From an uncultured Elusimicrobiaceae bacterium (lineage in GTDB: Bacteria > Elusimicrobiota > Elusimicrobia > Elusimicrobiales > UBA9959), in contig CAZVWK010000003.1 of NCBI GenBank assembly GCA_964631475.1, forward strand, positions 1 through 60,727: DNA of 60,727 nt, read 5' to 3'. This document shows, one piece after another, positions 12,213 through 60,727 of this stretch. A model generated the notes under the pieces. It was not told where the DNA came from, made no database searches, and worked only from the letters and a program-made list of their open reading frames with translations. The position numbers and the translations under genes are program-made. Each line of letters opens with the position of its first letter. Position 1 is the stretch's first letter.

Positions 12213-13403
12213 ATGAAAATCTGGATATTGTCGGATTACGACTCCCGCAAGCACCTGGCGGTCAAGAACCTGCTGGCGCGCTTCTACGCGGAATACCCGG
12301 AGCGAAAGTCCGGTTTCGAGGTGCTCAGCCGACGCTCGCTCTGGGACGCGCTGTTCGCCCACCTGCGCGACCCGAAGAACGCCCCGGCCGCCGACCTTAT
12401 CGAGCTCCCCCAGTCCTGGATCCCGCTTTTCTCCAAGCTGGGCCTGCTCGCCGACCTGTCCGGTCAGCTGGAGGGCCCCTCGGCCCGCTATCCCGAGTTC
12501 ATCCGCCGCAGCTGCCTGCCGGCCGAGGGCGGCGCGGTTTACGCCATGCCCTGGTGGGTCGAGATAGTCTGCCTGCACTACAGGGCCGACTCGCTTAAAA
12601 AAGTCTCGAAGGACCCCGAGGCGGACCTCGCCTCCTGGGAGGGCCTGCTGGACGTCTGCGGCAGGCTGAAGGCCGCCTGCCGGAAGAAGGACTATTACCC
12701 TCTGGAGAATTCCAACCCGTCGGGGGCGGTCAGCGCCGCCGACGCGCTGCCCTGCGTCTGGAACCGCGGCGGCGATCTCTTCAGCGAGGGCTTCAGCCGC
12801 TGCGCGGTGACGCGCGCCGAGACCGTGCGCGGCATCGAGGACTATCTCGGACTGGCCTCCAGGGAGTACATGCCGCTTTTCGAGGAGAATTTCCACGAGA
12901 GCGGATTCCTGGCTTCGGGCCTGAGCGACCTGGTCTTCTCGGGCCGGCTGCCGATACAGGTCAAGGCCGGCGGCCGCGGCGCCCAGCTGCGCCCCGTCCC
13001 CTACCCCTCTTTCGGCAGGCCCGTCTCGCCGTGCTTCGTCAATTCGCTGGCGCTGTGCAGCGGGTCCGCCGGCCAGGAGGGTCCGGCGGAACTCCTGAAA
13101 TGGCTGCTGGACCCGAGGCGGGCCAGGTATTTCACCGGCGCCTTCGGCGCCTTCCCCTGCCACCGCCAGCCCCTGGAGGACGCGCTGGACGCCAGCCGCC
13201 ACGGGGCGACGTACCGCAAGATCACCGAAAGCGCCAGGTTCAGGCCCGGCGTCACGGCCTACCCCACCTGCGAGCTGCTGCTGGACGCCGCGCTGGCCGG
13301 GGCCGCGCTGCGCTCGGCCGAGCGGGACTACGACGGTTCGGACCTGCGGCGGGAGCTGATAAAGATACAGGGCGAGGTGGATTACCTGCTTTCGATTTAC
13401 TGA
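12213..13403 (+). CDS. Periplasmic-binding-protein fold (SBP family 1-like) protein without a signal peptide
   Basis: 396 aa beginning directly with MKIWILSDYDS. SBP_bac_1-like blocks are present (DLIELPQSWIPLFSKLGLLADLS, YAMPWWVEIVCLHYRADSLKK). Only 41 nt separate it from tsaD, so there is no room for a leader peptide. Its stop overlaps the next start (TGATG). Confidence 0.65.
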   Translation: MKIWILSDYDSRKHLAVKNLLARFYAEYPERKSGFEVLSRRSLWDALFAHLRDPKNAPAADLIELPQSWIPLFSKLGLLADLSGQLEGPSARYPEFIRRSCLPAEGGAVYAMPWWVEIVCLHYRADSLKKVSKDPEADLASWEGLLDVCGRLKAACRKKDYYPLENSNPSGAVSAADALPCVWNRGGDLFSEGFSRCAVTRAETVRGIEDYLGLASREYMPLFEENFHESGFLASGLSDLVFSGRLPIQVKAGGRGAQLRPVPYPSFGRPVSPCFVNSLALCSGSAGQEGPAELLKWLLDPRRARYFTGAFGAFPCHRQPLEDALDASRHGATYRKITESARFRPGVTAYPTCELLLDAALAGAALRSAERDYDGSDLRRELIKIQGEVDYLLSIY

Positions 13404-14944
13404 TGAAGAGGAAAGAGCGCGATATTTACGAGGAACTGGAGCGGGCGGGCCTGACCGGGCCCAACGCCTTCTTCGGACACCTGCTCGGCGAGCTGGCCGC
13501 GGCCTATTCGCTGGACGGCGTCTCTTTCTTCGAGACGGACCTCAAGCGGTCGCTGCTGGGCCTGAAACTGCGCTGGAAGCACGGCCTGGTTTTCGAGCAC
13601 GAGGAGAACATCCGGCTGGACCAGGCCTCCGCGCTCGGCCAGGCTATACTGCGCGGCCGCTCGCACGCCGCGCGCGTACCCGGCATGCACCATCTCTACA
13701 TCCCCTTCTCGCTGGAGGGCCAGGCCGGGATCCCCGGACCGCAGCGCTCCGGCGTCATCCGCGCCGAGCGGCTGCACGGCAAGCGCGGGTTCCGCGACCG
13801 CGAGCGGCAGGGCGCGGCGGCCATGGTCCGCGGCCTGGTCCGGCACTATTACAGGGCCGAGTACGCGGACCTGCTGCGCCGCCACGAGCGCGGCATGGCC
13901 GCCGTGGCCGAGCTGACCGAGATCTTCGCCACCTCGATACGCGTGCGCGAGAGTTTCAAGCATATCCTGACCGGCGTGCAGAAATATTTCGGTTTCGACC
14001 GGGTCCGCCTCTACCTAATAGACAAGGGCGCCAACAAGCTGAAAGGGGAGTACAGCGCCGACATCCGCGGACAGGTCAAGAGCATCTCCTACGACGAGAT
14101 TCCGCTCGAGCCCGGCGCCCACCGCTTCGCCGACATCGTGCTCGGCAAGAGCACCGGCGCGTTCATGGACCGCTACCGCGAATGCGTGCTCTACCTGCCG
14201 CTGGTCGTTCAGGGCTCCACGATAGGGCTGCTCATCGTCGACAATATCCTCTCCCAGCACAAGATAGACCCGGCCGACCTGTCGATGCTCAGGTCTTTCG
14301 CCGGGCAGATCGCGCTGGCCGTGGATAACGTCAAGCTCTTCGATAAAGTCGAGGAACTGTCACTGCACGACGAACTGACCAGGCTGCCGCTGCGCCGTTA
14401 TTTCATGCAGCGCTTCCAGGAGGAATTCTACCGCGCCGAGCGTTCGCGCAAGCCGATGGCGCTGGTCTGGATAGACCTGGACTACTTCAAGGAGATCAAC
14501 GACACCTACGGCCACCAGATCGGCGACAAGGTGCTCAAGGAGGTCGGCCGCGTCATACTGGGCAACCTCCGCAAGATAGACTTCCCGTGCCGCTACGGCG
14601 GCGACGAGATACTCATACTGCTGCCCGAAACCGCCGCTTTCGACGCCAGGAAGCTCTGCGAGCGCCTCGCCGCCGAGATACGCGACCTCAAGATCCCCGT
14701 GCCTTTCTCGCGCAACCGCGAACTGCAGGTGTCGCTGAGCGTGGGCATCTCGGTGTTCCCGCACGACGCCTCGTCCACCGAAGAATTGCTGCGCAAGGCC
14801 GACGAGGCGCTCTACAAGGTAAAGTCCGGCGGCCGCGGCCTCATCATGCTCTACGACGAAAAGGCGGCCCAGACCACCGCCCCGGCTCAGGACTGCGCCG
14901 GAGCGCCGCTCCCCACTAAGGAGGCCGCGCCCGATGCGAAGTAA
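13403..14944 (+). CDS. GAF-domain diguanylate cyclase (GGDEF)
   Basis: The track ORF 13031..14944 overlaps the previous gene. The ATG at 13403 is in frame and shares one nucleotide with the upstream stop. It has a GAF-like segment and a GGDEF domain (DYFKEINDTYGHQIGDKVL, RYGGDEILILLPE), with an RxxD I-site (RKID) five residues before GGDE. Confidence 0.9.
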   Translation: MKRKERDIYEELERAGLTGPNAFFGHLLGELAAAYSLDGVSFFETDLKRSLLGLKLRWKHGLVFEHEENIRLDQASALGQAILRGRSHAARVPGMHHLYIPFSLEGQAGIPGPQRSGVIRAERLHGKRGFRDRERQGAAAMVRGLVRHYYRAEYADLLRRHERGMAAVAELTEIFATSIRVRESFKHILTGVQKYFGFDRVRLYLIDKGANKLKGEYSADIRGQVKSISYDEIPLEPGAHRFADIVLGKSTGAFMDRYRECVLYLPLVVQGSTIGLLIVDNILSQHKIDPADLSMLRSFAGQIALAVDNVKLFDKVEELSLHDELTRLPLRRYFMQRFQEEFYRAERSRKPMALVWIDLDYFKEINDTYGHQIGDKVLKEVGRVILGNLRKIDFPCRYGGDEILILLPETAAFDARKLCERLAAEIRDLKIPVPFSRNRELQVSLSVGISVFPHDASSTEELLRKADEALYKVKSGGRGLIMLYDEKAAQTTAPAQDCAGAPLPTKEAAPDAK

Positions 14945-16298
14945 GACCATCTTTCAGGCCCTGCTGGCCCTGTTCCTCGCGGTCTCCCCGGCCCGCGCGG
15001 TATTCGAGGACGTCGGCCTGGGCGCGGCCCAGGCGGCTATGGCCTGGTCGGGCTCGGTCCTGGACGGCCACGGCCTGCTCAATCCCGCCGCGGCGGGCGG
15101 GACGCGAAAGACCGTCGCGGGCGCCCACTATCTTTCGTCACGCCGGCTGCCGGGCGGTCCCTATGATTTCGACGACTATTCCTTCGACCTGCGCCATCCC
15201 CTGCTCATGAAGGGGAGGCAGGGCACTCTCACCGGGGCCCTGCGCTACCGCACCGACGGCTCGCTGGCGCGCCAGCGCGATATCGCGCTGGGCTGGTCCA
15301 GCTGGCAGCTCCTGCGCGTCGCCGGCGGCTCGCTGGACCTGGGCGTCAATTTCCGCATGCAGCAGCTGACGCATATACCCAGCGAGGAGGCCGCCTCCAA
15401 TCCCGGCCTGGACATAGGCGCGGTCTACAGGGCGGAAGAGGGCGTCTCGTACGGCTTCTCCGCGCTGAACCTCGGCAACCCGGAGTTTACGGCCGGCACA
15501 CTGGCCGATAATTCGCCCAGGATATACAAACTCGGCGCGGCCCAGGAGGCGCGGCACTACCGGCTGGCCATGGACTTCACCCGCCGCTCGGACTCCGCCG
15601 GCCACGGGGCCACCTACACGCTCAGTTCCGGCGCGGAGCGGGCCTGGCATTTCCTCAGGCGGGGCACGCTGCTGGCCCGGGGTGGCCTGCACCTGGGCGA
15701 CGCCTCGTCCCTGCTGGCGCTGGGCGCCGGGTGGCGGCTGGCCGAATCCGATCTTTCATACGCCTTCATGCTGCCGCTCAGCGGCGGCCGGTCCGCCGGG
15801 CACGCGCTGACGCTCAACTTGCGCTTCGGCGACAGGGACGCTTCCCAGGAATGGGAGAGGCTGCTGGAGCGGGAGATGAAGTTCCGCAAGGACCTGCTCC
15901 AGGCCCTCGACGAGGCCTCGCTGCGCGAGGGGGCGCTCAAAGACGAGCTGGATTTCCTGCGCCGGGAATTCGTAGCTCTCAACGCCATGTTCGCCGCCGA
16001 GTCGGAGCGGGCGGCGGCCGCCGGCGACCAGAAGCGCCGCGTCGAGGCCGCCCTGGAGCGGCAGCGCCGCGCGGCGGCCGAGCTGAAAGAACTGGAGGAG
16101 AAGCGCCGCAGGGACAGGCTGACCCAGCTTGCCTACCAGTTCAGCGTAGATTTCGAGGCCTACCTGAAGATGAAGGCGGGGGGGGGGCCGCCCGAAAGCC
16201 TGCGCGCCGCGCTGGGCCGGGTCATAGGCCAGTACCAGGATTCCGGCATAGACATCAGCCGGGCCACGGTGGAACTGCAGTCGCTGGTGGGAAAGTGA
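14934..16298 (+). CDS. Outer-membrane beta-barrel (PorV/PorQ-like) with a C-terminal coiled-coil extension
   Basis: Signal peptide ending ARA. The N-terminal motif VFEDVGLGAAQAAMAWSGSVLDGHGLLNPAA resembles the PorV/PorQ-type start, followed by alternating barrel-like strands for about 290 aa. A charged coiled-coil tail of about 150 aa follows. It overlaps the GGDEF gene by 11 nt, and AAGGAGG lies upstream. Confidence 0.6.
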   Translation: MRSKTIFQALLALFLAVSPARAVFEDVGLGAAQAAMAWSGSVLDGHGLLNPAAAGGTRKTVAGAHYLSSRRLPGGPYDFDDYSFDLRHPLLMKGRQGTLTGALRYRTDGSLARQRDIALGWSSWQLLRVAGGSLDLGVNFRMQQLTHIPSEEAASNPGLDIGAVYRAEEGVSYGFSALNLGNPEFTAGTLADNSPRIYKLGAAQEARHYRLAMDFTRRSDSAGHGATYTLSSGAERAWHFLRRGTLLARGGLHLGDASSLLALGAGWRLAESDLSYAFMLPLSGGRSAGHALTLNLRFGDRDASQEWERLLEREMKFRKDLLQALDEASLREGALKDELDFLRREFVALNAMFAAESERAAAAGDQKRRVEAALERQRRAAAELKELEEKRRRDRLTQLAYQFSVDFEAYLKMKAGGGPPESLRAALGRVIGQYQDSGIDISRATVELQSLVGK

Positions 16299-23074: not shown

Positions 23075-23566
23075 ATGGAGCGGGGCGAACGCAGGAGGGG
23101 ACAGGTCACGGTGGAGCTTCTGCTGGTGCTCCCCGTGTTCATGCTGATGCTCTTCCTAATAATGGAGCTCGGCAACCTGGCCTTCCAGACCATCCTCGCC
23201 CATCACAGCACCTACGAACTGGCGCGCATCGGTTCGCTGGTGGCCGGCCCCAGGGGAGGGGAGCTTTCCAACAACTGCGACAAGGGCAAGGCCGAGATAA
23301 AGATGCGCGAAGTGCTCTGCGATATGTTCACCAACTGCAACAACATGAGCGTTACGGCTGAATGCGTCTGGACCGGCCGGGACAGGCAGGTGCAGGACAC
23401 GGGCCTGCGGCACGACAACCACGACCTGCAGGTAACCCTGCTCTACCCGGCCAGGCTGGTATTCCCGGGCGCCAATTACATACTGTCCGACCCGCCCAGG
23501 CAGAAGCATTCCAAGGAAATAAAGGTGGTGTTGCGGATGCCCGTGGAGAAGCCGTTCCTGCAGTAG
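23075..23566 (+). CDS. tadE: TadE-like pseudopilin
   Basis: RRRGQVTVELLLVLPVFMLMLFLIMELGNLAF is a TadE-family N-terminus. 163 aa. Confidence 0.8.
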   Translation: MERGERRRGQVTVELLLVLPVFMLMLFLIMELGNLAFQTILAHHSTYELARIGSLVAGPRGGELSNNCDKGKAEIKMREVLCDMFTNCNNMSVTAECVWTGRDRQVQDTGLRHDNHDLQVTLLYPARLVFPGANYILSDPPRQKHSKEIKVVLRMPVEKPFLQ

Positions 23567-23638
23567 CAGCGATTTAACAGTAATTTAACAACCCTGTAAC
23601 CCGGGGCCGGTAAACTATAAGCCAGAGGTGCTCTGTCT

Positions 23639-24394: not shown

Positions 24395-24416
24395 GCCCGT
24401 CCACGGGAGGATTTGG

Positions 24417-25142: not shown

Positions 25143-25155
25143 CGAGGCTGCAAGG

Positions 25156-27393
<2,238 letters not shown>

Positions 27394-27403
27394 GGGCGGT
27401 CTT

Positions 27404-44280: not shown

Positions 44281-44296
44281 AACGCAATCTTTCAGG

Positions 44297-54200: not shown

Positions 54201-57200
54201 CCCCGACCATCATCGGCACGGCCATATACTCCACCACGGTGCAGCTCAGGATAGTCGACTACGGCGCGGACCTCGCCGAAGGTCTCGGCAACGACGACCT
54301 GGCCTGGAACGGCTCGGCCTGGGTGTCAACCACGGCCTTCGCCGGCTATATCGGCGTGAACAGTTTCGCCTCTCCCAACTGGCAGTGGACCATGGCGGGG
54401 GGGAACTGGAACAATAACCGCCGCTACCGGGTGCGTTCCATGTCCGCCCACGAGGTGGACGGCACCAGCGAGGCGCCGGCCCCCGGCCGCGAGTTCATAA
54501 TAGACGATACTCCGCCTTCCGCCGCGGTCACCGCCCCGGACAGGGCCTATCTGCCGCGCCTCCAGGAACTGCGCGGCTCGGTCTCAGACGTGTCTCCCGG
54601 CCTGCTGCAGTCCGGCTATTTCCGTGTCACGCGCCAGGGGGCGGCCCAGTTCTGGGACTGGCGCCTGTCCACTTTCACGGCCGCCGGCGCGGACATAAAC
54701 CTCCCGGCGTCCATCCTGGCCGGCATCGCCTCCTATACGACCGACTATTTCCAGACGGGCCAGGCGTGGGAGGCCGACCGGACTTACGAGGTTCAGCTTT
54801 TCGCCTCGGACCGGGCCGGCAACCTGGGCTCCTCACCGGTCGCGACTTTTACAGTAGACCGCAGTTCGCCGGCGGCCCGCATCCTCGTGCCGCGCGACGC
54901 CAACGGCAAAGGCATCCGCTCGATAGCCTCGATCAGCGGCACCGCCGCCGACAACTGGGGCAACGCCAATATAGAGGTGGCCGTGCAGCAGTGGGGCAGC
55001 CCGCGGCTCTGGTTCAACGGCACGGATTTCCTGGAGCCCGGCGAAACACCCTACTTCATACCGCTGGACGCCAACGGCACGCTCTCGCAGTACGCCACCT
55101 CCTGGGCCTACGCTCCCGCGGTCCTGGACACGCGCTTTACCGCCGGGACCACCGGCCTGCGCTACCTGGTGCTGGCGCGGGCCACGGATATAGCGGGCAA
55201 TATCCAGGACCAATACGCCGTCGGTTTCTCTTCGGTCATCATCTCCATCGACAAGAGGCCTCCATCCTCGCTCATCGCTTTTCCGGCCGACCACCAAGAC
55301 GGCGTGAGCGGACGCTATAAGCCGTCCAATGCCGGCAAGGCGGGCACCGGGACCCGCTTTTTAGGCTCCGCTTCCGACAATTTCTACAGCGAGCGCAATG
55401 CCGGCGTGTCGGCCGCCAGGATACGGCTCTCCCATCTGCTCGCCGGCGATACCTGGTACTGGCTGGGCGCGTCGTTCAGTTCCGGCACGCTGGCCGAGGC
55501 GGGCGCCTGGCAGCCGGTCAGCGTCAGCGCCAATCCCCCGGACTGGGACTGGGTCTACCTGCCCGACGTGGAGTGGCCGGCGGGCGACAGGGAGTACAGG
55601 CTGGAATCCATGGCGATGGACGACTCGCGGCTCTCCGACGACGGCGGCGACGGCAACTGGGAGAGCGCCTGGACCAGGGGCGCCAACCTCAGGCAGTTCA
55701 TCATCGACGATACCCCGCCGGCCGTGCTGATAACTTCGCCGACTTTCGACGCCTCGGGCGCGCTGGCCGAGATACGCGGCACCGCCGACGCCGACATCGC
55801 CGGCTTCAAGCGTACTGAAATAAAGATTTCCACCAGCGGCGTGGACGGCGCCCGCTACTGGACCGGCGCCGGCTGGTCGCCTTCGGAGACCTGGATAAAC
55901 TCCGACAAACAGGGGCCGGCCTCCTGGTACTATACGGTGCCCGGCGCCATGCTCAGTGACGATACGGTCTACACGGCCGTGACCCGCGCCGTGGACTACG
56001 CCGATAATTTTTCCTCGGTCTATTCGACGAAGACCTTCACTTACGACGTCACCCCGCCGCTGGTCTCGATGTCGCACCCTGAGAACGCCGCCACCTATTC
56101 GCGCATCTCCCTCTCCACCCCGATAGCCGGCGCCACCGCCAATACGCAGTCCTCGCCTTTCACCGGCGCCAGCGCGGTCGCCGTCGCGATCAGCGAGATA
56201 GACGGCGCCGGCGGTTACTCCGCCTGTTTCGACGGCAACGCCTTCGCGGGCTGTCCCTCGCCGGTCTGGCTGCCGGCGCAGGGTACGCCGGCCAGCTGGA
56301 CCTTCAACGACGCGGACCTGTCCTTCCTGAGCGACAGGCGCTACAAGTACGAGGCCCGGGCGACGGACATAGCGGGCAACCAGTCCGCCCCCGCGTACGT
56401 TATAACAAAGTTCGACCTGGATATCCCGACCTCGACCGTGGTCTCCCCTTCCGCCGAATATGTCAGGACTCTCACGCTGATATCCGGCACCGCCTCCGAC
56501 GAGCGCTACGGCGCCCGCACTTACGAAGCCGGCCTGGGCACCTACACGGTCAAGGTCGCCGTCCGGCTGGTGGGAGGCGACTGGTGGAACGGCGTCGACG
56601 CTTTCAATTCGGCCAATCCGCTCTGGTACGAAGCCTCGGTGGACACCGCGCCCTACGGCGCCGGCCAGCCGGTGCTGAACTGGACCTACGCCGTGCCGGC
56701 CAGCATGCAGGGCGTCATCTCCGGCCTGGGCAGGAAAGATTACCTGGCCGTGCCCTGGGCCTATGACCTGGCGCTCAACCGCGAATTCGGCCCGGGCGGC
56801 GCCGAGCCTTCCAACGCCGACATCCCGGCCGGCGTCGGCCGCGTCATACGCTACGACAATATCATCCCCGTGGCGGAGTCCACCGCCCCGGCCGACGGCG
56901 GCTACTACAACAGCGTCGCCGCCCTCTACGGAGTCGCCTACGACACCGGCTCGGTGACCGGCGTGCAGGTGCTCTTCAAGGCGAGGGGGTCGTTCAACGC
57001 GACCTGGCGCGGCACCTATAACAACGACACCTCCGACTGGGACGACACGGCGTCCAAGTACACGCGCTGGAGCACCGCCACCTTCAACAACGGCGCCTGG
57101 ACCATAGCGCTGCCTTCGCTGATGCCGGTCAACAATAACCGCTTCTCAGTCTGGGCGCGGGCCATAGACGCGGCCGGCAACTGGCAGCTAAGCCCCTCCC

Positions 57201-60200
57201 CGGCCCAGATAGACGCCAACCTGAAGGCGGACGGCTCTCCCGCCCATGTCTTCACTTTCGACCGCACCATCCCGGTCACGGGCGTCACGGCCCCGTCCAG
57301 CTACGCGCTGGCCGTCTCCACCGGCCTCATCACCGGCACTTCGTTCGACGCGGGCACCGAGCCCTCGGGCGTCAGCGAGGTGCGCCTGCGCTTCCGCCGT
57401 TCCGACAACTCTTGGTGGAGTTTTATAGACAATAACTGGACCAGCGCCACCCAGTCCGACACCTTCGGCGTGGACGGCTCCGACCCTTGGTCCAAACCGA
57501 TAAACCAGGCTTCGCAGGAGGACGGCTACCGCTACGATATCTACCACTTCGCCAAGGACCGCGCGGGCAACAATGAGTCGGGCGCCTCTTTCTCCACCTT
57601 CACTTTCATCACCGACTATACCGCGCCTTCGTCCAGCATCACCTTCCCGGCCAATAACAGCTTCATCGGCGCGGTCACCAGCCTCTCCGGCACCGCGGAC
57701 GACAGCGCGGAGAACCTGCGCGGCTGGTCCGGCGCCCGCGGCTTTGAGTCCGGCGTGTCCGCCGGAGGCGTGGCGGTCGCTCTCCAGCGCCTGACCGACA
57801 ACTACTGGTGGAACGGGACCAATAACTTCGTGTCCGGCGCCATGCAGTGGCATGCGGCCGCCTTCGACGGCGCGTCTTCCGGCACCTGGACCTACGCCCT
57901 GCCGGCCGGGGCCATAGCCGACGGCACCACGTACTACGCGATGAGCCGGGTGACGGACATCGCGGGCAACATAAAGACGCAGTGGACGACCAACTACTTC
58001 ACCGGCGACACGACCCCGCCCGATTCCAGGGCCACCGGGCCCATGGGAACGCAGTCCGTAGTCAACACCATCTCGGGCACCGCGCAGGATACACCTCCGG
58101 GCGAGCTTAGGCCGACGGGGACCATCATGGTGGCGCTGCGGCAGATTTCGCCCGTAGTGAACTGCTTCAACGGCTCCGGTTTCGTCGCTTGCCCGGCCGG
58201 CGTCTATCCGGACGACCGCGTCTGGATCGCCACCGGCACAACCGGAAACCCGGCCGGGCAGCCCGCGGCCTGGACCTGGGACACCTCGCTGATAAACTGG
58301 GCCAATAACGCCGACTACGACGTGCAGGCGCTGGCGGTGGACCGCGCCGGCAACACCCGTCCCCAGCCCGGGGCCTCCTCGCCCGACCTGACATTCAGGT
58401 TCGTCAGCCCGGCGGCGGACACGGTCATTACGCAGCCCGCGACCGAGTTCGGCAATTACCGCGCGGGAGACGTGCTGTCGATGCTGGGCACCGGCGTCAA
58501 CCTGCGCGCCTCCAACAGCGTGGAGATACGGGTAAAGCGGCTGAAGGAGCCGGCCAGCTGGTGGTTCGAGCCCTCGGTGCACTGGGTGAACAGCGACACC
58601 TTTACCTATGTCGGCCACACCGCCGGCTCCTGGTCCATGGGCCTCAGCGGCTCGTCGGCCTTCAACGTGGACAATGCCAGCTACACCCTGTCGGCGGTGG
58701 GCTATAACGCCGCCAATGAGGCGGAAGTCCCGCCGACCAACAGGACGATAATAATAGACAATACCGTCCCGCTGGCGGTCATCCAGTCGCCGTCATACCA
58801 GTACATCAGGACCATGCCGGCCATAAGCGGCACCGCGGCCGATCCCGGACGCGGCGAACTGCCGTCCGATTACCGCGAGGGGATGAGCCATGTCCGAGTC
58901 ATTATCAAGGACCTTTTCGCCGGCACCTACTGGAGCGGTTCCTCTTTCGGGTCATTTGGCCCGCAGAGCGAACTTCCCGTCAACGGCGTGCTGAACTGGT
59001 CCACCTCCACCCACGTGACCCCGGCGCTGCTCGACGGGCGCAACTACCGCGTCTTCGCCAAGGCTTACGACAAGGCCGGCAACCGCGACGACAACGAGGG
59101 CTCGATGCCCGGCTTCGGCGTGGTCTTCGACACCGCCCCGCCGAACTCGTTCGTCGCCTACCCGGCGCATATGCAGGTGCTGCGCTCCCTCTCGCCGCTG
59201 GCCGGCACCGCCGAGGATCCGGCCGGGGCCAATCCGCCCAATCTGAAATCCGACCTAGGGCGGGTCGCGGTGCAGCTCTACGACGAGGCCGGCGTGAAAT
59301 GGTGGCATCACGGCGCCGGCGCCTTCTCGGTGCTCAGTTCCAGCTTCAACATAACCTCAGGCACCGATACATGGTCCTATACGCACCCGAACCTGGAGGC
59401 CTCGCTGGAGTCGGGCAAGTACTACATACTGAGCTCCAGCGCGGTGGACCGCGCCGGCAATCCCCAGGCCGCGGTGGTCAACGAGGTGTCCTCCCTCACC
59501 TTCGTCTGGGACAGGACGGCCCCCGAGGCCTTCTTCGCCGTGCCGGTCGAGGGCGGGCGCTACCGCCCGTCGGTTCTCACCGGCGTCAATGCGCTCAACG
59601 GTACCGCCTCGGACGCGCCGCTGCCGGGCATTACGGACCAGCTCAATAAGGCGCAGATAAACCTGAGTTATCTGCACTCCGGCGACACCTATTACTGGAC
59701 CGGCGCGGCCTTCAGTTCCTGGACAGTGACCTTCGACGGGGCCTGGCAGGACGTGGTCGGGGCCGCTTCGTGGAACTATCCTTTCGACGGCGCGAAATGG
59801 GTGTCCGACAGGGAGTACACGCTGCTGGTACGGGCCTTCGACAAGGCCGAGCCCATGGGCGCCAACGGCGGCAACGAGAGCGCCTGGGCGCAGGTGAAGT
59901 TCGTGGTGGACGGCACTCCCCCGGTCTCCCGGGTTTCCACGCCCACCGCCGGCAGCTACATCCAGGCTTCGCTCTCCGAAATATCCGGCACTTCCTTCGG
60001 CGGCCTGTCGGGCCTGCAGTCCGGGGCGTCGGGCCTGCGGTTGCGCGCCTACTACACCCAGGGCGTGAACACCTGGTACTGGCGCGGCACCGCCGCCCTA
60101 GGCTGGTCGCTGAACTCCCCGGTGGATCTGCCAGTGGATTTCACGGCCTCCGCCTCAACCGTAACCTGGAGCTACCCGCCGGTGGGATGGGAGCCGCCGG

Positions 60201-60727
60201 TCATCTCCACCAACAACCAGGTTTATAACTTCTCCATATCCGGCCAGGACCTGGCCGGGAACGCCGAAGCCTACGCCGCGATTTCCGTCACCTCCGACTT
60301 TAACTATCCGGCCATAACCATCTCCACGCCGATGGCCGGAGCGAACGCCTTCTACGGCGCGGCGAGAACGATGCCCGACATGCGCGGCCTCGCGGGCGAC
60401 TCACCGGCCGGCATAGTCCTGCCGGTACTGGCGCAGATGTCGAACATATCCGAGAGCGGCGCCGTCAAGCCCAAGTGGGACGGGGCTCAGTGGAGCGTGG
60501 CGGGGTCCACCTGGATGGCCGTCGCCGCCGCGCTGCCGAACTGGACCTTCTCCTCTCCCTCGTGGCCGGTGAACAAGCGCTTCCGCGTCGAGATGACAGG
60601 AGTCGACGCCGCGGGCAACTCCGTGCCGCCGGGGACCTATACCCGCGACTTCATCTACGACGTCAACAGGCCGTCCACGTCTATAAACGGGCTCGCCGCC
60701 GCCGGTTTCCGGAATCCCTCCCAGATA
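45209..60727 (+). CDS. Giant secreted multi-Ig-like-domain surface protein (partial; open to the window end)
   Basis: ATG at 45209, 8 nt after the HEAT gene. Signal peptide MTPASRKKRAALAAALRGCLATGLFLLPEPAAAQA. I read the frame (positions congruent to 2 mod 3) codon by codon to 60727 and saw no stop, which gives 5173 codons. It has genome-typical codon usage and a recurring module F-x-YD-x-x-P-x-S-x-I-x-x-P...I-x-GTA-x-D...YW...W...Y...A-x-D-x-AGN. It is not in the ORF track. Confidence 0.9.
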   Translation, partial: MTPASRKKRAALAAALRGCLATGLFLLPEPAAAQAIPWGNTHTGKNVRIHVSMNGVGDGSAISFTAPKDGKIAEIQIVGSRDVDGSFILGLSETLTSDFNVWLDSASYTLNTAGDGVFWAGSNMPDLPDVVGGRLYYIIAMRNTGADTENGVVCFEDNPTIAFDNSGNPVEDVNLGAFANENGLAWGGITGAPIFLVRYTDGTWYGQPYVRAPNNASTTGYDTVLAGAPILSVPVYSNTNLVAQRFTPGASDIGVTGFGLYMQRVGSPAGDLFARLHNVTDNMVVVDTVSVTNAASVPLSPAAGWLDVVFPGVRLQAGKNYRLSFFSPAANASNYYRPIVHDVRNSGAPYENVSFGGTGAWYETSANNGASWNLPAIGGDVAFRLLRDVNPPTVTLLQPQHNTWRKTLPQITGTAVDDYYIPAGGVKLFLIDDIAGKRWNGTDWNTDYFTGDENTPALWVSAGAQSAAPGAIVNWTYDISWQHDRRYTIYARAMDRAGNYSAGWSTTTFHYDNYQPAPERPDSLVTTPSPGSYVSQMTALVGTSYDNLRGGINLVKWLLWRQSDGNYWNTSVWTPGPLPAADAWYNSNIFPAGGVSVTWQPDPATLPLAADMLAGDIYHISARAQDRVVDAAGAPAPNLEVDRSTITFYWDDIPPTSSITLPLDGGVVGQTPVFYGTYYDQHAGIGPSIGGTVKIKLYDKTMNLWYYTGDWRSAAPTNDQLPSAQVWASSWTFATPPLTGGHQYLVVSVAQDRATPGNYQTSFAEGTSSNTFVCDNENPSAGITTPSHNHHNIMAQLAGTASDSPQASQINRVEFELVYPAGSPAWAWDGAAGIWRASSGNFSTYNVVMGGYPAWTYDVPGGINWQQDTLYRLRVRSVDNIGNKSQNFVDGLTERTFYYDVSNPTSTVTTAVQAGQPVPLLAGTSNYLRDISLVYGTAADWPAVGSELSAVSVFIRKMDDPAVNYYWYEPGKCWRTGGTVYANNYETRVGGWQYDTFAQGVSWSTGTRCDNGAAAWNNGGTFEIRTEARDSAYPGNNPLPYGNREKGGTYDSLGRAVVVYDPKRPFSRLSNIPGTNYTNSLPTLYGTASDNDAGVVTYSPGISSVKVHIYKQGPPPVQTYNGTAWVDGEQMDDAYWLNATYTPYFAGASSGTWSYTVGNDKWQHGTTYRIVPKTYDLAGNYDAVLATRTFVYDVYQAPPSEAPRSEISYPVDDFHTNNWSDLVTVTGTAHDNPPIGKVHKLKLILKRIQGNTTSYWNGVTWADGDVPSDTTAWPEGDPADGAYNTSEEAFICGAGATACVVPDGATVWTPDLKYYLYAETQDQAGNYERERTTHTFVYEVQAPTVTITYPQTDLYVSQTGRVAGTAADNWPGRVNHVEVRIRRDDGYYWRASDDTWTQDGAPEVWNNIVSQGTLSPSGTWWQLNDTPWETNRTYGVNARVRDKAGNWGLVYSTASNVAADFTTPTSTVTYPAHGANLQEEVTIISGSASDAAPGQVDKVLVSFYCNNDICQGNYWNPVASAWNSASEIFSEATLLTGNRWQIAAPIWANSTGEVEYQVFAKAVDKAGGEVPKPGATGDGPWITFYLTTPGPSSGITTPNDETPHWNPSVAPALAGTANFANSVALRLVDHGSDNLLGTGDDLAWDGDSWEPAGAYTGYFPVTVFNAPNWQWSMAAGNWNPDRKYRVRSKATGATEEVPGLGVDFVLDADDPSAAITLPTADYVRSVPLLAGNASDAAPGVVQEVYFRVRRQESSQFWNWNAATFTALSGADTNLTAYLDAGVYKYDMPSEAFETDKGYIAQLVVKDKAGNLTQATDRPFAIDKSSPVARLLLPYDANDKGVRSIPAISGTAADTQKNSSVQIAIQKWVGATLVWYDGSGFTSLQEEPYWIPVTPLNGFLSPDATSWAYAPAGLNDNFEGGYRYLILTRAVDTAGNTQESFSVGVSSRVVKVDKAPPSSLFIAPLDNGDGVSGRYKPSAIGQFPANHLRGTASDNPSNLAAGLQTAQIRLSYLLAGDTYYWTGASFSSGAVAEAAAWRNASITGSAPIWNWDYTTSVVWPAGDREYLAEARGMDDSRLSDDGGDGNWEQAPYVSRGFIVDNTPPEVLITSPVAAAVRTMSIIRGTAEAGLAGHKWTELKLSTSGVDGTRYWTGSDWTPAETWITTVKEGPTSWYYTVPPALLSDGRDYTAVARALDFADNYSSVYSTYVFTYDTVPPYVAVSFPLNDAPYSQIRLSTPVAGSSHQNDQASARAKVSTVAVQIADLDAPGGPFCFDGALFGACPSWHPAQGTVDSWTWNSAALAFVNDRRYQFTAKAVDFAGNESAAAQVFIRYDVERPTSTITQPLAGYTTGFTQIRGTASDERDGPRSYEARLSSYTVKVALKRLTAPAGWWNPATDDFSDANPLWFEAYTSTSATPNQFTYNLTGPMLSYLANPSNQNVTYRIVPWAFDRALNREYGPSAAEPQDGDIPADVGITVIYDNEKPVTSITLPNAAAHNTLPNITGTADDNIRVNSVRFTVYNQSQSKYYDPSQNPPWVIDVENNAPWVLAQSTIYQTSAAWTYNIQNSSWTSGVRYRVRARATDLAGNLDVVYSTSTFQFDNNAPVSSVTYPANGQHLSAAALPVTITGTSFDFPVGDQSGVSQIGMYLQRASDLAYWSGSGWEPLEQVLLANPVGDYSSWNRGVEGGMFTGNDGERFHIHLNARDAATNQEGYSVKSTFVYDIGRPTGTISYPFDNGYISQTGRITGGSYDKPNGAVSDVRVRIRQTAGPNAGRYWRVSDGSWTIDGAPEVWNSAAQYGTLSPAGTWWQLNTAPWQSGETYEVDAYALDMAGNYQLPFSTATNVKADFTAPSSTVTYPAHASVVESELTVISGSASDPAPGVLDKVRVSYYKVDTARWWDFGAQAWSATSEQFTEAALLAGNRWEATGVSTPTWIATLAGLDYRIFARAVDQAGNEVAKPGAPAADSSFIQFTLRPPPPESTITTPDDTVPHLRTSPAPTIIGTAIYSTTVQLRIVDYGADLAEGLGNDDLAWNGSAWVSTTAFAGYIGVNSFASPNWQWTMAGGNWNNNRRYRVRSMSAHEVDGTSEAPAPGREFIIDDTPPSAAVTAPDRAYLPRLQELRGSVSDVSPGLLQSGYFRVTRQGAAQFWDWRLSTFTAAGADINLPASILAGIASYTTDYFQTGQAWEADRTYEVQLFASDRAGNLGSSPVATFTVDRSSPAARILVPRDANGKGIRSIASISGTAADNWGNANIEVAVQQWGSPRLWFNGTDFLEPGETPYFIPLDANGTLSQYATSWAYAPAVLDTRFTAGTTGLRYLVLARATDIAGNIQDQYAVGFSSVIISIDKRPPSSLIAFPADHQDGVSGRYKPSNAGKAGTGTRFLGSASDNFYSERNAGVSAARIRLSHLLAGDTWYWLGASFSSGTLAEAGAWQPVSVSANPPDWDWVYLPDVEWPAGDREYRLESMAMDDSRLSDDGGDGNWESAWTRGANLRQFIIDDTPPAVLITSPTFDASGALAEIRGTADADIAGFKRTEIKISTSGVDGARYWTGAGWSPSETWINSDKQGPASWYYTVPGAMLSDDTVYTAVTRAVDYADNFSSVYSTKTFTYDVTPPLVSMSHPENAATYSRISLSTPIAGATANTQSSPFTGASAVAVAISEIDGAGGYSACFDGNAFAGCPSPVWLPAQGTPASWTFNDADLSFLSDRRYKYEARATDIAGNQSAPAYVITKFDLDIPTSTVVSPSAEYVRTLTLISGTASDERYGARTYEAGLGTYTVKVAVRLVGGDWWNGVDAFNSANPLWYEASVDTAPYGAGQPVLNWTYAVPASMQGVISGLGRKDYLAVPWAYDLALNREFGPGGAEPSNADIPAGVGRVIRYDNIIPVAESTAPADGGYYNSVAALYGVAYDTGSVTGVQVLFKARGSFNATWRGTYNNDTSDWDDTASKYTRWSTATFNNGAWTIALPSLMPVNNNRFSVWARAIDAAGNWQLSPSPAQIDANLKADGSPAHVFTFDRTIPVTGVTAPSSYALAVSTGLITGTSFDAGTEPSGVSEVRLRFRRSDNSWWSFIDNNWTSATQSDTFGVDGSDPWSKPINQASQEDGYRYDIYHFAKDRAGNNESGASFSTFTFITDYTAPSSSITFPANNSFIGAVTSLSGTADDSAENLRGWSGARGFESGVSAGGVAVALQRLTDNYWWNGTNNFVSGAMQWHAAAFDGASSGTWTYALPAGAIADGTTYYAMSRVTDIAGNIKTQWTTNYFTGDTTPPDSRATGPMGTQSVVNTISGTAQDTPPGELRPTGTIMVALRQISPVVNCFNGSGFVACPAGVYPDDRVWIATGTTGNPAGQPAAWTWDTSLINWANNADYDVQALAVDRAGNTRPQPGASSPDLTFRFVSPAADTVITQPATEFGNYRAGDVLSMLGTGVNLRASNSVEIRVKRLKEPASWWFEPSVHWVNSDTFTYVGHTAGSWSMGLSGSSAFNVDNASYTLSAVGYNAANEAEVPPTNRTIIIDNTVPLAVIQSPSYQYIRTMPAISGTAADPGRGELPSDYREGMSHVRVIIKDLFAGTYWSGSSFGSFGPQSELPVNGVLNWSTSTHVTPALLDGRNYRVFAKAYDKAGNRDDNEGSMPGFGVVFDTAPPNSFVAYPAHMQVLRSLSPLAGTAEDPAGANPPNLKSDLGRVAVQLYDEAGVKWWHHGAGAFSVLSSSFNITSGTDTWSYTHPNLEASLESGKYYILSSSAVDRAGNPQAAVVNEVSSLTFVWDRTAPEAFFAVPVEGGRYRPSVLTGVNALNGTASDAPLPGITDQLNKAQINLSYLHSGDTYYWTGAAFSSWTVTFDGAWQDVVGAASWNYPFDGAKWVSDREYTLLVRAFDKAEPMGANGGNESAWAQVKFVVDGTPPVSRVSTPTAGSYIQASLSEISGTSFGGLSGLQSGASGLRLRAYYTQGVNTWYWRGTAALGWSLNSPVDLPVDFTASASTVTWSYPPVGWEPPVISTNNQVYNFSISGQDLAGNAEAYAAISVTSDFNYPAITISTPMAGANAFYGAARTMPDMRGLAGDSPAGIVLPVLAQMSNISESGAVKPKWDGAQWSVAGSTWMAVAAALPNWTFSSPSWPVNKRFRVEMTGVDAAGNSVPPGTYTRDFIYDVNRPSTSINGLAAAGFRNPSQI
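49214..57598 (+). repeat. Tandem duplication of an 11-module super-repeat inside the giant gene
   Basis: Copy A is 49214-53362 (1383 codons) and copy B is 53363-57598 (1412 codons). They are colinear module by module (for example GAPEVWN...GTLSP(S/A)GTWWQLN; CFDG-x-x-F-x-x-CPS; MDDSRLSDDGGDGNWE). A 48-nt identical run occurs at 51422-51469 and 55616-55663. Confidence 0.8.

Follow-up and report, generated by a model that had tools for sequence, protein, structure and literature searches.

The window, by which we mean the whole 60,727-nt contig from an uncultured Elusimicrobiales bacterium, was analysed over positions 12213-60727, and the features found there are collected in Table 1. As the initial annotation had it, all the parts that it named lie on one strand, every feature class being confirmed on the plus strand, and each piece is ordinary in the sense that every part could be assigned to a known kind or family; the classification of no part is changed.

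Table 1. Genes and regulatory features between positions 12213 and 60727 of the window.
Feature	Position	Strand	Evidence or remark
SBP-like gene (SBP_bac_8)	12213..13403	+	Pfam 7e-8; overlaps cyclase start (ATGA)
GAF-GGDEF diguanylate cyclase (predicted)	13403..14944	+	Pfam GGDEF 3.5e-46, GAF 4e-8
Protein with PorV-like N-terminal half and C-terminal coiled coil	14934..16298	+	hhalign
Coiled-coil protein	16471..18192	+	SMC-like coiled-coil matches only
Protein with C-terminal FlgD_ig/CTD-like domain	18340..19335	+	Pfam FlgD_ig 7e-4
FlgD_ig-repeat protein with T9SS-type C-terminal domain (CHU_C)	19296..21452	+	Pfam
PorV/PorQ-like outer-membrane barrel	21460..22473	+	NCBIfam; 4 nt upstream of first Flp gene
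Two Flp prepilin genes	22477-22716, 22788-22976	+	G-Q-x-x-V-E-Y motifs
Tad core	23075..31216	+	Pfam: TadE, RcpC/CpaB, short secretin, TadZ-TadA, TadB, TadC, TPR (TadD-like)
TadZ(CbiA)-TadA(T2SSE) fusion	25156-27393	+	Pfam
Signalling block and two extra genes	31290..39358	+	Pfam
Third Flp prepilin	39484-39750	+	G-Q-x-x-V-E-Y
Third Flp, TadG-like, second TadE-like, 427-aa protein without assigned family, S41 protease	39484..44066	+	
Perfect palindrome CTTGACCTGTCAAG, candidate operator	44081..44094		10 nt upstream of -35 box
Sigma-70 promoter TTGACA-16-TATACT	44105..44132	+	11/12 consensus positions
GEMM-I (c-di-GMP-I clan) aptamer	44171..44246	+	Rfam RF03167 63.1 bits (gathering 59), E 1.4e-12
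P1 3' strand and linker GCCGAAGACCGG, proposed antiterminator strand	44237..44250	+	Complementary to 44302-44313
Intrinsic terminator	44293..44350	+	Stem ~19 bp (-29 kcal/mol), then U6AUUU
Secreted HEAT-repeat protein	44500..45201 (alternative start 44359)	+	Pfam HEAT_2 1.9e-18
Giant surface protein	45209..60727	+	>5,173 aa, no stop before contig end

The cyclase had been described as having an intact GGDE and I-site, and this is borne out by its Pfam match, by the motif GGDEI and by the I-site RKID five residues upstream. Together with the canonical Asp in GHQIGD, the protein thus has the active site, the RxxD I-site and the guanine-reading Asp by which a GGDEF diguanylate cyclase is predicted, and its orthologues in three related loci (L094, L096 and L003) keep all three motifs. 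A Hypr, that is, cGAMP-making, GGDEF was rejected, since Asp and not Ser/Thr is conserved in the window and in these three orthologues. The cyclase is the only GGDEF within 60 kb, and in L094 and L096 it is likewise preceded by the SBP-like gene.

Of the two PorV-like barrels proposed earlier, the one encoded immediately before the pilins (21460-22473) can be called PorV-like, but not a demonstrated member of the family, its 59.8 bits with the PorV/PorQ model NF033709 (E 3e-16) lying below the cut-off of 90; the best PDB match of its family profile is PorV 6h3i (E 0.0035). The other (14934-16298), whose gene overlaps the cyclase stop by 11 nt (14934-14944), had no Pfam or NCBIfam match and is homologous to this family over its N-terminal ~220 aa only (hhalign 88.5%, E 2.7e-6). 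The CTD-bearing repeat protein, in turn, was correctly recognized: it has FlgD_ig repeats (Pfam 9.5e-25) and, as C-terminal sorting domain of type IX secretion (T9SS) cargo, a CHU_C match (1.5e-9, 38.3 bits against a cut-off of 27), with TIGR04183 at 21.3 bits, slightly below its cut-off of 23. The protein encoded before it is 48-80% identical in relatives, and the coiled-coil gene is kept in L001, L002, L094, L096 and L099. A CHU_C/Por_Secre_tail-type domain on a repeat protein adjoining a PorV/PorQ-like barrel recalls PorV and CTD cargo of type IX secretion; here, however, the barrel is below cut-off, the genes lie within a Tad pilus operon, and none of the core T9SS genes (SprA/Sov, PorK/L/M/N, PorU) was found among the window's genes. 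Elusimicrobiota is not a phylum known for T9SS. In all relatives the genes for the PorV-like barrel and the CTD-bearing proteins directly precede those for Flp, and their products may be an outer-membrane anchoring module by which a lineage lacking type IX secretion holds its Tad pilus.

The pilus locus had been read as a complete Tad machinery with three pilins. Its three Flp prepilins have a G/XXXXEY-type processing motif, and its Pfam matches comprise T2SSE, two T2SSF, RcpC, Secretin, CbiA fused to T2SSE, TPR and two TadE; 'complete' is slightly overstated, given that Peptidase_A24 (TadV/CpaA) had no match at E values up to 5 in any gene-like ORF of the window, a search that included the 340-aa N-terminal extension of TadB. 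The prepilin peptidase may be encoded elsewhere in the genome. The second Flp gene has Flp1_like/Class_IIIsignal matches and the Flp pair is conserved in relatives, while the Tad core is colinear in L001-L003, L094, L096 and L099. The TadZ-TadA fusion was rejected as a novelty, its full-length matches being spread over many phyla. Within the locus are embedded six signalling proteins, not seven as first counted, namely, a HAMP protein, an OmpR-type regulator with a degenerate receiver, CheY, a dCache-HAMP kinase, a Rec-kinase hybrid and a NarL-type regulator; the two extra genes encode a small membrane protein and a secreted DsbA-like protein. The NarL-type regulator, with a true start at about 38681, shares 80-100% identity with its counterparts in over 100 Elusimicrobia clusters, and the genes from the third Flp to the S41 protease are kept after it in L081, L083, L085, L088, L091, L103 and L106.

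Conserved synteny had been named as a check on the proposed island, and for most of its length it was found. The TadZ-TadA fusion is 81, 57 and 56% identical to those of Elusimicrobiales MAGs, and relatives with 56-91% identity in this protein keep the order from cyclase to S41 protease. Colinear blocks were found in L001-L003, and the stretch from TsaD-SBP-GGDEF through HAMP is colinear in L094 and L096, so that the block from cyclase through Tad to the two-component genes is conserved (L094, L096, L003, L001 and L002). The riboswitch cassette downstream, in contrast, is separable from it.

This cassette begins after the S41 gene and carries two coding sequences. The HEAT protein has 233-280 aa depending on the start, and a signal peptide follows ATG 44500, which is also where the database gene call starts; its orthologues in L103 and L081 are 37% and 33% identical. 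The giant protein consists of a signal peptide, a ~385-aa N-terminal domain and at least 37 tandem ~120-aa Ig/FN3-like modules with Pfam Big_7/Big_13 matches, and a module modelled with AlphaFold2 (pLDDT 82) gave FN3/Ig-like structural matches. An orphan cargo was rejected, since tblastn/blastp against related loci aligned the giant protein colinearly with the giant gene of L109 (11,714 aa) at 52-57% identity and with that of L103 at 33%. The HEAT protein and the giant's first 400 aa, when used as queries in word-indexed searches for homologues, had yielded nothing or themselves alone; an exhaustive phmmer search, which also counts against orphan cargo, found 69 distant relatives of the giant's N-terminal domain, some with weak DUF4082 similarity.

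Between 12 and 45 kb, the promoter of the cassette alone comes near the consensus; it is kept in related leaders, and transcription would start near 44140. The palindrome preceding it is unique within the window. Across 102 loci, TTGACNNGTCAA was found at the promoter of the riboswitch in L081, L083, L088, L103 and L109, and at two sites outside riboswitch promoters, in L001 and L014. An island-wide operator was rejected, as the palindrome is unique in the window and the L001 occurrence lies in a low-GC insertion without a riboswitch.

The candidate c-di-GMP aptamer of the initial annotation is confirmed, to judge from model score and nine covarying pairs, as a GEMM-I aptamer, and its match is far beyond chance. 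Within Rfam clan CL00126 the window scores above the gathering threshold of RF03167, and with RF01051 (gathering 35) the aptamers of relatives reach 55.1-59.9 bits. RF03167 is the best-scoring Rfam model for the window and for L081 (61.3 bits), and RF01051 for L083, L088, L103 and L109, the Rfam-detected aptamers thus representing six lineages (window, L081, L083, L088, L103/L104 and L109). Over six orthologues and 21 pairs, 99.2% of the positions are paired, compared with 25-45% once the partners are slid, and nine of the pairs have compensatory changes, which back helices P1, P1a/P1b and P2 in the six sequences. The P1b tetraloop, in this class a GNRA loop that docks into P2, is CAAA in the window and L083, CUAA in L081, UAAA in L088 and L103, and GCAA in L109, the consensus being GAAA.

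At the ligand-contact positions (Vc2 numbering), the A47-equivalent is A (44207) and the C92-equivalent is C (44244), but the G20-equivalent is A, at 44180 in the window and in all six aptamers, which therefore depart from the G20/A47/C92 set; 'AAUAGCAAA', which carries this A as in GEMM-Ib, is present in all six. Despite the top score, membership in the GGC variant (RF03167) was rejected, the characteristic G being absent and model position 37 (A47-equivalent) being A. Where the RF03167 consensus has G and RF01051 has A (GACGCGAA versus GACGCAAA), the window and its relatives have A, reading GCGCAAAGC against the RF03167 consensus GACGCGAAgC, and they also differ from the GGC variant in having A, not G, at the G20-equivalent.

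That the aptamer stands in front of the giant gene, as first noted, is right insofar as it lies upstream and the pairing recurs in six lineages, although the HEAT gene intervenes. The cassette adjoins the Tad locus in six of 11 related contexts, and in each the giant gene, which reaches 12,759 aa, follows the aptamer. Each aptamer is directly upstream of a HEAT gene, a giant gene (6,115+ to 12,759 aa) or both, and the Tad loci have no aptamer at any other place. Five related Tad loci lack the cassette, one of these genomes keeping cyclase and Tad (L096/L091). Among complete or near-complete MAGs, GCA_040753515.1 and GCA_023701245.1 have the cassette and GCA_001799575.1 does not. The riboswitch-HEAT-giant cassette is a separable module, because it has its own near-consensus promoter and is absent from these five loci. 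Our best explanation, which taken as a whole we regard as reasonably probable, is that the 48 kb consist of two linked yet separable units. Unit A (12.2-44.07 kb) is a conserved, tightly packed, same-strand cluster that starts with a solute-binding protein and a GAF-GGDEF cyclase predicted to be active and ends with an S41 protease; it also holds the genes for the outer-membrane proteins of PorV-like and CTD-bearing type, for a Tad/Flp pilus and for a phosphorelay of several components. Unit B, which runs from 44.08 kb to the end of the contig, would be an independent transcription unit with, in this order, a candidate palindromic operator, a strong sigma-70 promoter, the GEMM-I aptamer, a Rho-independent terminator, the HEAT gene and the giant gene.

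How the leader of Unit B may switch was evaluated by folding. Terminators equivalent to that of the window lie downstream of all six aptamers, and aptamer and terminator do not overlap and can coexist. The 5' arm of the terminator contains GUCUUCGG (44306-44313), and GCCGAAGACCGG forms with 44302-44313 a duplex of -15.8 kcal/mol, which is present in the MFE of the truncated transcript. For a transcript cut after the 5' arm, the computed energies are -60.8 kcal/mol for the antiterminator state versus -52.2 for the P1 state, whereas in the full-length leader aptamer plus terminator reach -74.8 versus -71.1 kcal/mol for the enforced antiterminator. The GUCUUCGG/CCGAAGA complementarity is retained in the window, L081 and L088; in L083 the 3' half of the aptamer pairs with the terminator 5' arm, while the duplex of L103 reaches no more than -7.1 kcal/mol and that of L109 is ambiguous. 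As the antiterminator strands do not vary, covariation offers no check on them, and the terminators were read from single-sequence folds, four of them aligning poorly in MAFFT/RNAalifold because two terminator types exist.

These data suggest a switch in which GUCUUCGG and CCGAAGAC would take part. Without ligand, the P1 3' strand would pair with the terminator 5' arm as an antiterminator and the operon would be transcribed; with ligand, P1 would be locked, the terminator would form and transcription would stop before the HEAT gene. Judged by thermodynamic folding and conserved complementarity, on which the direction of switching rests, the leader is probably a Cd1-type OFF switch by which the ligand represses the giant protein. 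High ligand would then lower the giant protein and not display it, contrary to the initial proposal that the messenger switches adhesin display on. Class I riboswitches may be ON or OFF, and extrapolation has been warned against (PMC6366702). The closest counterpart is C. difficile Cd1 (Cdi-1-3), upstream of the flgB operon, a GEMM-I fold whose aptamer can form together with the downstream terminator; the 3' strand that closes the aptamer there competes for the terminator 5' arm, so that ligand favours termination (OFF), the same strand logic as proposed here (PMC9262584; PMC6366702). The two differ at the G20-equivalent, which is G in Cd1 and A here, and Cd1 serves flagella in Bacillota, whereas the predicted OFF switch of Elusimicrobiota would serve a HEAT and a giant Ig-repeat protein. 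Predicted repression by the messenger is the reverse of the textbook view that c-di-GMP turns adhesins on, and six orthologous leaders are open to comparison; in relatives the riboswitch precedes genes of 11,045-12,759 codons, which rank among the largest recorded in bacteria.

The ligand would be a G-containing 3',5' cyclic dinucleotide, of which c-di-GMP is most likely the physiological one, and 3',3'-cGAMP binding is also expected because A is invariant at the G20-equivalent. An A there is a signature of 3',3'-cGAMP-sensing or bispecific GEMM-I RNAs and weakens the c-di-GMP assignment: cGAMP riboswitches have A for G20, and the mutation G20A makes Vc2 bind cGAMP; A20 RNAs bind c-di-GMP too, however, and some natural ones are bispecific, A20 alone giving bispecific binding in Vc2 G20A and Cbe 1-2 (PMC6140456). 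G20 is a selectivity factor, and lower P2 positions also affect selectivity (PMC9262584). It is therefore conceivable, if doubtful, that the aptamer is a GEMM-Ib-type 3',3'-cGAMP sensor that answers to a cGAMP synthase encoded at another place in the genome and not to the adjacent cyclase. Retention of the A in six of six orthologous aptamers, although nine stem pairs changed, argues for such a sensor, as do the G20 data just cited, which nonetheless cut both ways, given c-di-GMP binding by A20 RNAs and the part of lower P2 in selectivity. The sole visible cyclase (60 kb) has Asp and not the Hypr Ser/Thr, in the window as in three orthologues, and the known Geobacter GEMM-Ib switches are ON switches, both of which weigh against it. 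The J1/2 segment of the window, CACGACAAUA, presumably resembles that of Geobacter Gs1761, and we count it in favour of a cGAMP sensor. The Geobacter GEMM-Ib RNAs (Gs1761, pilM) share the A for G20 in an otherwise GEMM-I fold and lie upstream of genes for surface, pilus and extracellular functions (PMC6140456, PMC8835794, PMC9262584), as here of a surface-protein gene; yet in these ON switches the terminator overlaps the aptamer, whereas here the two are separate and OFF is predicted, and cGAMP is supplied by the Hypr GGDEF GacA (Ser348), whereas the adjacent GGDEF here is of the canonical Asp type. Only tentatively, then, do we propose that the Elusimicrobia A20 aptamers are 3',3'-cGAMP or dual cGAMP/c-di-GMP sensors shutting off a ~12,000-residue surface protein. 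If so, the cGAMP pathway, linked so far mainly to Geobacter-type bacteria, would act in a deep-branching, mostly uncultured phylum, and the adjacent canonical cyclase would serve the pilus unit; the invariant A offers probes for the reach of 3',3'-cGAMP sensing beyond Geobacter. With c-di-GMP retained as the most likely ligand, the neighbouring cyclase is still not established as input of the riboswitch, because the aptamer has A at the G20-equivalent and the cyclase the canonical c-di-GMP-specific Asp.

A single c-di-GMP regulon spanning the island, as first suggested, remains a hypothesis. In its strongest form, cyclase-made c-di-GMP would turn ON two things at once, the giant adhesin by way of the riboswitch and the Tad pilus by way of a receptor not yet recognised, for which TadZ-TadA is an example; this we consider quite improbable. 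The cyclase-Tad synteny, conserved down to 56% TadZ-TadA identity, the translational coupling of the cyclase to the first PorV-like gene through their overlap, and the adjacency of cassette and Tad locus in six lineages fit a common attachment regulon, and ON c-di-GMP riboswitches of adhesins exist (Bc2/cap and Cdi-2-3/CD2831; PMC6366702). But the predicted architecture of the platform is OFF, A20 departs from the nucleotide that is canonical for c-di-GMP specificity, and five related Tad loci, one of them with cyclase, do without the cassette, which shares its promoter and candidate operator with no other operon of the window. The search for PilZ/MshEN-type receptors recommended by the initial annotation, which had singled out the TadZ-TadA fusion as a candidate binder, also speaks against it: domain searches found no PilZ, MshEN, VpsT-type or other recognisable c-di-GMP receptor in the pilus genes, the fusion or other island proteins, and regex matches fell solely in unrelated proteins, so such receptors were rejected. 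As far as the sequence can be read, the tie between pilus and messenger is the adjacency of the cyclase and nothing else. At the opposite extreme, co-linearity may reflect genomic neighbourhood, the junction after S41 being a variable insertion hot-spot with no functional relation to the pilus, and this we deem unlikely. After S41 there are toxin-antitoxin-like genes in L081, L091 and L093, glycosyltransferase and radical-SAM genes in L085 and L089, and an 811-aa protein in L106, while the L092 locus ends at the NarL gene, followed by housekeeping genes; moreover, the giant gene evolves far faster than the Tad core (33-57% versus 86-100%). Against a mere hot-spot, HEAT genes follow S41 even without the riboswitch (listed for L085, L089 and L083), and six separate lineages have the cassette next to their Tad locus, with no occurrence at any other place in ~100 loci, a sample chosen by Tad-gene anchoring and thus biased for this adjacency.

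Two linked yet separable units, which remain our preferred reading, have partial precedents. B. thuringiensis Bc2/cap and C. difficile Cdi-2-3/CD2831 likewise have a cyclic-di-GMP riboswitch in the leader of a large surface adhesin (PMC6366702), but both are ON switches, that of CD2831 being class II, and the adhesins are sortase-anchored and far smaller, whereas here OFF is predicted and the cargo reaches ~12,000 aa. By analogy, the best precedent for pilus and giant adhesin as one programme is the P. aeruginosa PprAB regulon, in which a two-component system of the tad locus co-regulates Flp pili and the giant repeat adhesin BapA (PMC3510237), and which also covers CupE. PprAB, however, acts through a response regulator on promoters, without a riboswitch; here the candidate palindrome is at the giant-gene promoter only, and co-regulation would be hypothetical. 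For a phylum with almost no experimental genetics, the locus nevertheless provides a cyclic-dinucleotide riboswitch that can be put to a concrete test, and the conserved order of cyclase, PorV-like, CTD, Tad and phosphorelay genes is a comparative set for Tad pilus regulation and anchoring in non-model diderms.

Expression of the giant gene may have further inputs. A phase-variable inverton between terminator and HEAT gene was rejected, as there are no conserved flanking inverted repeats and the window has no recombinase. No terminator was found between the S41 gene and Unit B, and read-through from the Tad operon is possible. An AT-rich, promoter-like segment (44401-44445) lies between the terminator and the HEAT start, and it could allow riboswitch-independent expression.

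The initial annotation read this locus as a single c-di-GMP regulon uniting a cyclase, a Tad pilus, CTD-bearing cargo and a riboswitch-gated giant adhesin. Its observation was, overall, correct and careful: domain scans and synteny confirmed its pieces, and the neighbourhood they form, as real and conserved. The window has a G+C content of 64.7%, third-position G+C cleanly separated real genes from shadow ORFs, and from 6.9 kb to the window end all genes lie on the + strand. The 622-aa ORF adjoining AcrB and membrane-fusion protein genes carries a TetR_N DNA-binding domain (residues 16-62) and an outer-membrane efflux protein (OEP) domain, and represents a genuine fusion or else two genes joined by the ORF call.

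Features of the window and of related loci in other Elusimicrobia (window gene order from Pfam and NCBIfam scans of ORFs)
Locus	Feature	Coordinates	Strand	Remark
Window	TetR_N-OEP ORF	4561-6429	-	
Window	FtsX-like, M23, CtpA-type S41, TsaD	up to 12171		housekeeping
Window	Solute-binding-protein-like (SBP) gene	12213-13403	+	
Window	GAF-GGDEF protein	13403-14944	+	
Window	454-aa protein	14934-16298	+	
Window	573-aa coiled-coil protein		+	next after 454-aa protein
Window	Two FlgD_ig proteins	second 19296-21452	+	CHU_C type IX-style C-terminal domain at end of second
Window	337-aa barrel-like protein	21460-22473	+	
Window	Two Flp prepilins		+	next after barrel
Window	TadE, RcpC/CpaB, short secretin, CbiA(TadZ)-T2SSE(TadA) fusion, TadB, TadC, TPR protein	TadB 27404-28948	+	in this order
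Window	HAMP protein, small membrane protein		+	after TPR protein
Window	OmpR-type regulator, CheY, secreted DsbA-like protein, dCache-HAMP kinase, receiver-kinase hybrid, NarL-type regulator	OmpR-type 32810-33565	+	in this order
Window	Third Flp, TadG-like, TadE-like genes		+	after NarL-type regulator
Window	427-aa protein, second S41 protease	S41 end 44066	+	427-aa: no assigned family
Window	Promoter, Rfam riboswitch match, HEAT-repeat gene, single ORF	ORF 45209 to contig end	+	3' of second S41
Window	Giant-protein N-terminal domain	45209-46408	+	
L088	Cassette order			S41, aptamer, HEAT, 12,759-aa gene
L083	Cassette order			S41, HEAT, small barrel, beta-propeller protein, aptamer, 12,501-aa gene
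L103 and sister contigs	Cassette order			S41, aptamer, HEAT, giant gene (6,115+ aa in L103, 11,045 aa in sister contigs)
L109	Cassette order			FtsH-like gene, aptamer, HEAT, 11,714-aa gene
L081	Cassette order			S41, aptamer, toxin-antitoxin-like genes, HEAT, giant gene
L088	Extra structured element	9712-9905		
L083	Extra structured element	about 15975-16165		
L103	Extra structured element	about 7995-8140		
L083	FtsH-like gene	8774-10390		
L085	FtsH-like gene	12833-14449		
L088	FtsH-like gene	5345-6991		
L089	FtsH-like gene	12894-14519		
L103	FtsH-like gene	3553-5361		
L109	FtsH-like gene	13349-14959		
L081	Toxin-antitoxin-like genes	15661-20169		after S41
L091	Toxin-antitoxin-like genes	16057-19669		after S41
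L093	Toxin-antitoxin-like genes	16071-19599		after S41

The GAF-GGDEF cyclase has the intact GGDE and I-site ascribed to it, but is the second rather than the first ORF of the range concerned. The protein (...IDLDYFKEINDTYGHQIGDKVL...LRKIDFPCRYGGDEI...) retains the GGDE(I) site, an RxxD I-site at canonical spacing and the guanine-reading Asp of ordinary diguanylate cyclases, where the cGAMP-making Hypr enzymes have Ser/Thr (PMC8835794). GHQIGD, RxxD and GGDE are kept in every orthologue compared.

Three Elusimicrobiales/Elusimicrobia MAGs encode proteins that share 81, 57 and 56% identity with the TadZ-TadA fusion. In their loci, tblastn with all window proteins recovered the window's gene order from the coiled-coil and PorV-like genes, via Tad, as far as the NarL regulator; L003, the most distant of the three, has a GAF-GGDEF gene (40% identical) directly upstream. 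A scan of metagenomes with the PorV-like barrel as anchor yielded two further loci, L094 and L096, that are fully colinear from TsaD, SBP, GAF-GGDEF, the 454-/573-aa proteins, both FlgD_ig, barrel, Flp and Tad to the HAMP protein, with GGDEF identities to the window cyclase of 91% and 60%, respectively; in L099 the block is present and the cyclase not detectable. Intergenic gaps in the window are mainly 4-100 nt, with several gene overlaps, and neither a convincing + strand terminator nor a consensus promoter was found at 12-44 kb. Given this spacing and the conserved order, the cyclase-to-S41 stretch is a genuine conserved supra-operon, and for this part the predicted synteny held (L001-L003, L094, L096).

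Within it, the CTD-bearing FlgD_ig protein, the PorV-like barrel and the first Flp gene (19296-22716) are separated by just 8 and 4 nt, and their order is kept in all relatives examined (L001-L003, L094, L096, L097, L099, L100), down to 56% TadZ-TadA identity, which suggests that the CTD/PorV-like pair belongs to the pilus operon rather than being its neighbour. Of the two PorV-like barrels proposed, the 337-aa protein matches the NCBIfam PorV/PorQ family, albeit under its cut-off; a profile of eight orthologues gave PorV (6h3i) as its best, though weak, solved-structure match. The 454-aa protein, however, resembles it over the N-terminal ~220 residues only (hhalign 88.5%). All three pilins were verified as Flp prepilins with G-Q-x-x-V-E-Y, whereas the Tad machinery, described as complete, has its Tad genes but no A24 prepilin peptidase detected in the window by Pfam/NCBIfam scans, and we counted six, not seven, signalling proteins within the pilus locus. 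The TadZ-TadA fusion is not unusual, since it occurs full-length across many phyla. TadB is unusually long (514 aa), with a 340-aa N-terminal extension lacking a Pfam match and kept in relatives (TadB identity 41-83% across about 500 aa). The OmpR-type regulator has a degenerate receiver, with the phospho-acceptor Asp replaced (DLLIVGQNL) and the N-terminal acidic pair absent, and is nonetheless 82-84% conserved in L001 and L083; these features suggest a regulator that acts independently of phosphorylation or binds a ligand.

The NarL-type regulator, 80-100% identical in more than 100 Elusimicrobia protein clusters, served as anchor for fetching the downstream side of related Tad loci. Rfam scans found a GEMM-I aptamer in L081, L083, L088, L103/L104 and L109, and none in L085, L089, L091, L092, L106, L001-L003, L094, L096 or L099. 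In all positive loci it occupies the leader of a HEAT gene that has a giant gene after it, or lies straight before the giant gene. The genome of MGTT01000011.1, a contig of which L096 and L091 are two pieces, keeps the cyclase and Tad locus, but the 10 kb that follow its NarL gene contain no aptamer. A TTGACA-16/17-TATAAT type promoter is common to all positive leaders, as is, at or just upstream of its -35 box, a TTGAC-NN-GTCAA palindrome whose single occurrence in the window is at the riboswitch promoter. The riboswitch cassette is thus a separate, recurrent, independently promoted unit.

The giant ORF encodes a signal peptide, a ~385-aa N-terminal domain and then a run of 37 tandem modules of ~120 residues that continues to the contig end; no DNA-level tandem repeats were found in it. 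Modelled with AlphaFold2 on the basis of all 37 copies, a single module (pLDDT 82) shows no more than a generic likeness to FN3/Ig-like sandwiches (TM 0.4-0.5). Reading the HEAT and giant genes as orphan cargo proved to be an artefact of word-indexed searches, as colinear homologues exist in L109 and L103. The window giant gene is 52-57% identical to that of L109 and 33% to that of L103, and HEAT proteins are 33-37% identical between loci; the adjacent Tad genes are 50-96% and NarL 86-100% identical. By these comparisons the giant genes are orthologous but fast-evolving. The N-terminal domain has no Pfam match; exhaustive phmmer gave 69 distant relatives, the best at 31% identity (E 5e-28); many of them form part of other very large proteins, and some show weak DUF4082 similarity.

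The candidate aptamer proved real (Rfam 63.1 bits, E 1.4e-12). Its six distinct sequences aligned straightforwardly, with pairing on the Rfam structure in 99.2% of cells, falling to 25-45% in a partner-sliding control, and with both-side changes in 9/21 pairs, including P1 (C-G, U-G, U-A), four P1b and four P2 pairs. By cmscan, the consensus is ...AAaGGCAAA...GACGCAAAgCc... for RF01051 and ...AAAGGCAAA...GACGCGAAgCc... for the GGC model RF03167. All six aptamers have AAUAGCAAA and G(C)GCAAAGC, and hence lack the distinguishing G, so assignment to RF03167 was rejected. All six also carry A (window 44180) where both families and Vc2 have G20. This change occurs in cGAMP riboswitches; Vc2 G20A binds cGAMP (120 nM) and c-di-GMP (53 nM), and among natural A20 RNAs specificity runs from cGAMP-selective to bispecific (PMC6140456). 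Position 20 is a selectivity factor and not a hard filter, with more determinants in lower P2 (PMC6140456; PMC9262584), and therefore sequence does not tell ligand identity. We consider c-di-GMP somewhat more likely, since c-di-GMP signalling is ubiquitous and the locus itself has a conserved cyclase; that A is strictly kept across lineages whose stems have diverged speaks modestly for cGAMP or dual sensing.

In the expression platform, a strong hairpin (-22 to -47 kcal/mol) with a U-rich tract follows the aptamer in all six leaders; in the window it spans 44293-44337 plus U6AUUU, ends 9 nt before ATG 44359 and does not overlap the aptamer. The terminator 5' arm contains GUCUUCGG, which in three of the leaders (window, L081 and L088) is the complement of the P1 3' strand and linker (GCCGAAGA...), giving duplexes of -15.8, -15.8 and -12.3 kcal/mol, respectively; in L103, where P1 has covaried, the duplex is -7.1 kcal/mol, and in L083 the 5' arm pairs with the aptamer 3' half. 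For the window leader truncated after the 5' arm, constrained folding gave -52.2 kcal/mol for the P1/aptamer state and -60.8 for the antiterminator state; at full length, aptamer plus terminator reached -74.8 and the enforced antiterminator -71.1 kcal/mol. At the decision point the antiterminator is thus preferred by 8.6 kcal/mol, a margin that the binding energy of a nanomolar ligand would be sufficient to overturn. In this predicted competition of the P1 3' strand for the terminator 5' arm the leader resembles Cd1, the C. difficile OFF switch whose aptamer/terminator strand logic has been described, and differs from the ON switch pilM, where terminator and aptamer are mutually exclusive (PMC9262584). 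Strand logic and ligand energy together lead us to predict, with moderate confidence, ligand-induced termination (OFF); class I riboswitches work in either direction, and reviews urge caution (PMC6366702).

The simplest one-regulon wiring is disfavoured by the separable, independently promoted riboswitch unit, by its predicted OFF design and by A20, which is not the c-di-GMP-specific nucleotide; nor did the pilus genes contain a recognisable c-di-GMP receptor. The nearest precedent for pilus and giant adhesin in one programme is the P. aeruginosa PprAB regulon, which works through a response regulator (PMC3510237), and a similar link is conceivable here, through the NarL-type regulator, which is highly conserved, and the palindrome at the promoter. 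The locus itself is an ordinary but well-organised surface-structure locus, and its riboswitch, judged by sequence, a new GEMM-I family member of A20 type in a new phylum, with a predicted OFF platform before exceptionally large genes.

Several variable elements accompany the cassette. Three related leaders, but neither the window nor L081 nor L109, have an additional structured element of ~150-190 nt between promoter and aptamer, whose long closing stem (GYCCCGCCCUUUUGG ... CCAAAAGGGCGGGRC) encloses GCGGU-rich repeats and an invariant GGUCGCAGACAGRCGCGG (fold z-score -3.4; no Rfam match). Between riboswitch terminator and HEAT start, an AT-rich promoter-like segment (44401-44445; TTGTACTATTATCATAAT in the window, TATATTATAAT in relatives), around which no inverton-like flanking repeats were found, recurs at the same relative place in L083, L103 and L109, is followed by a conserved small hairpin (44444-44479), and may act as a further promoter that is independent of the riboswitch. 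In most relatives an FtsH-like AAA+/M41 protease gene lies between the second TadE-like and 427-aa genes, but the window, L081, L091 and L106 do not have it; L109, without the 427-aa and S41 genes, has it between the TadE-like gene and the riboswitch. In some lineages the post-S41 junction holds nucleotidyltransferase/HEPN/DUF6036 and HATPase_c_2/DUF4325 toxin-antitoxin-like genes, placed in L081 between riboswitch and HEAT gene, which identifies the junction as a site of variable insertion.
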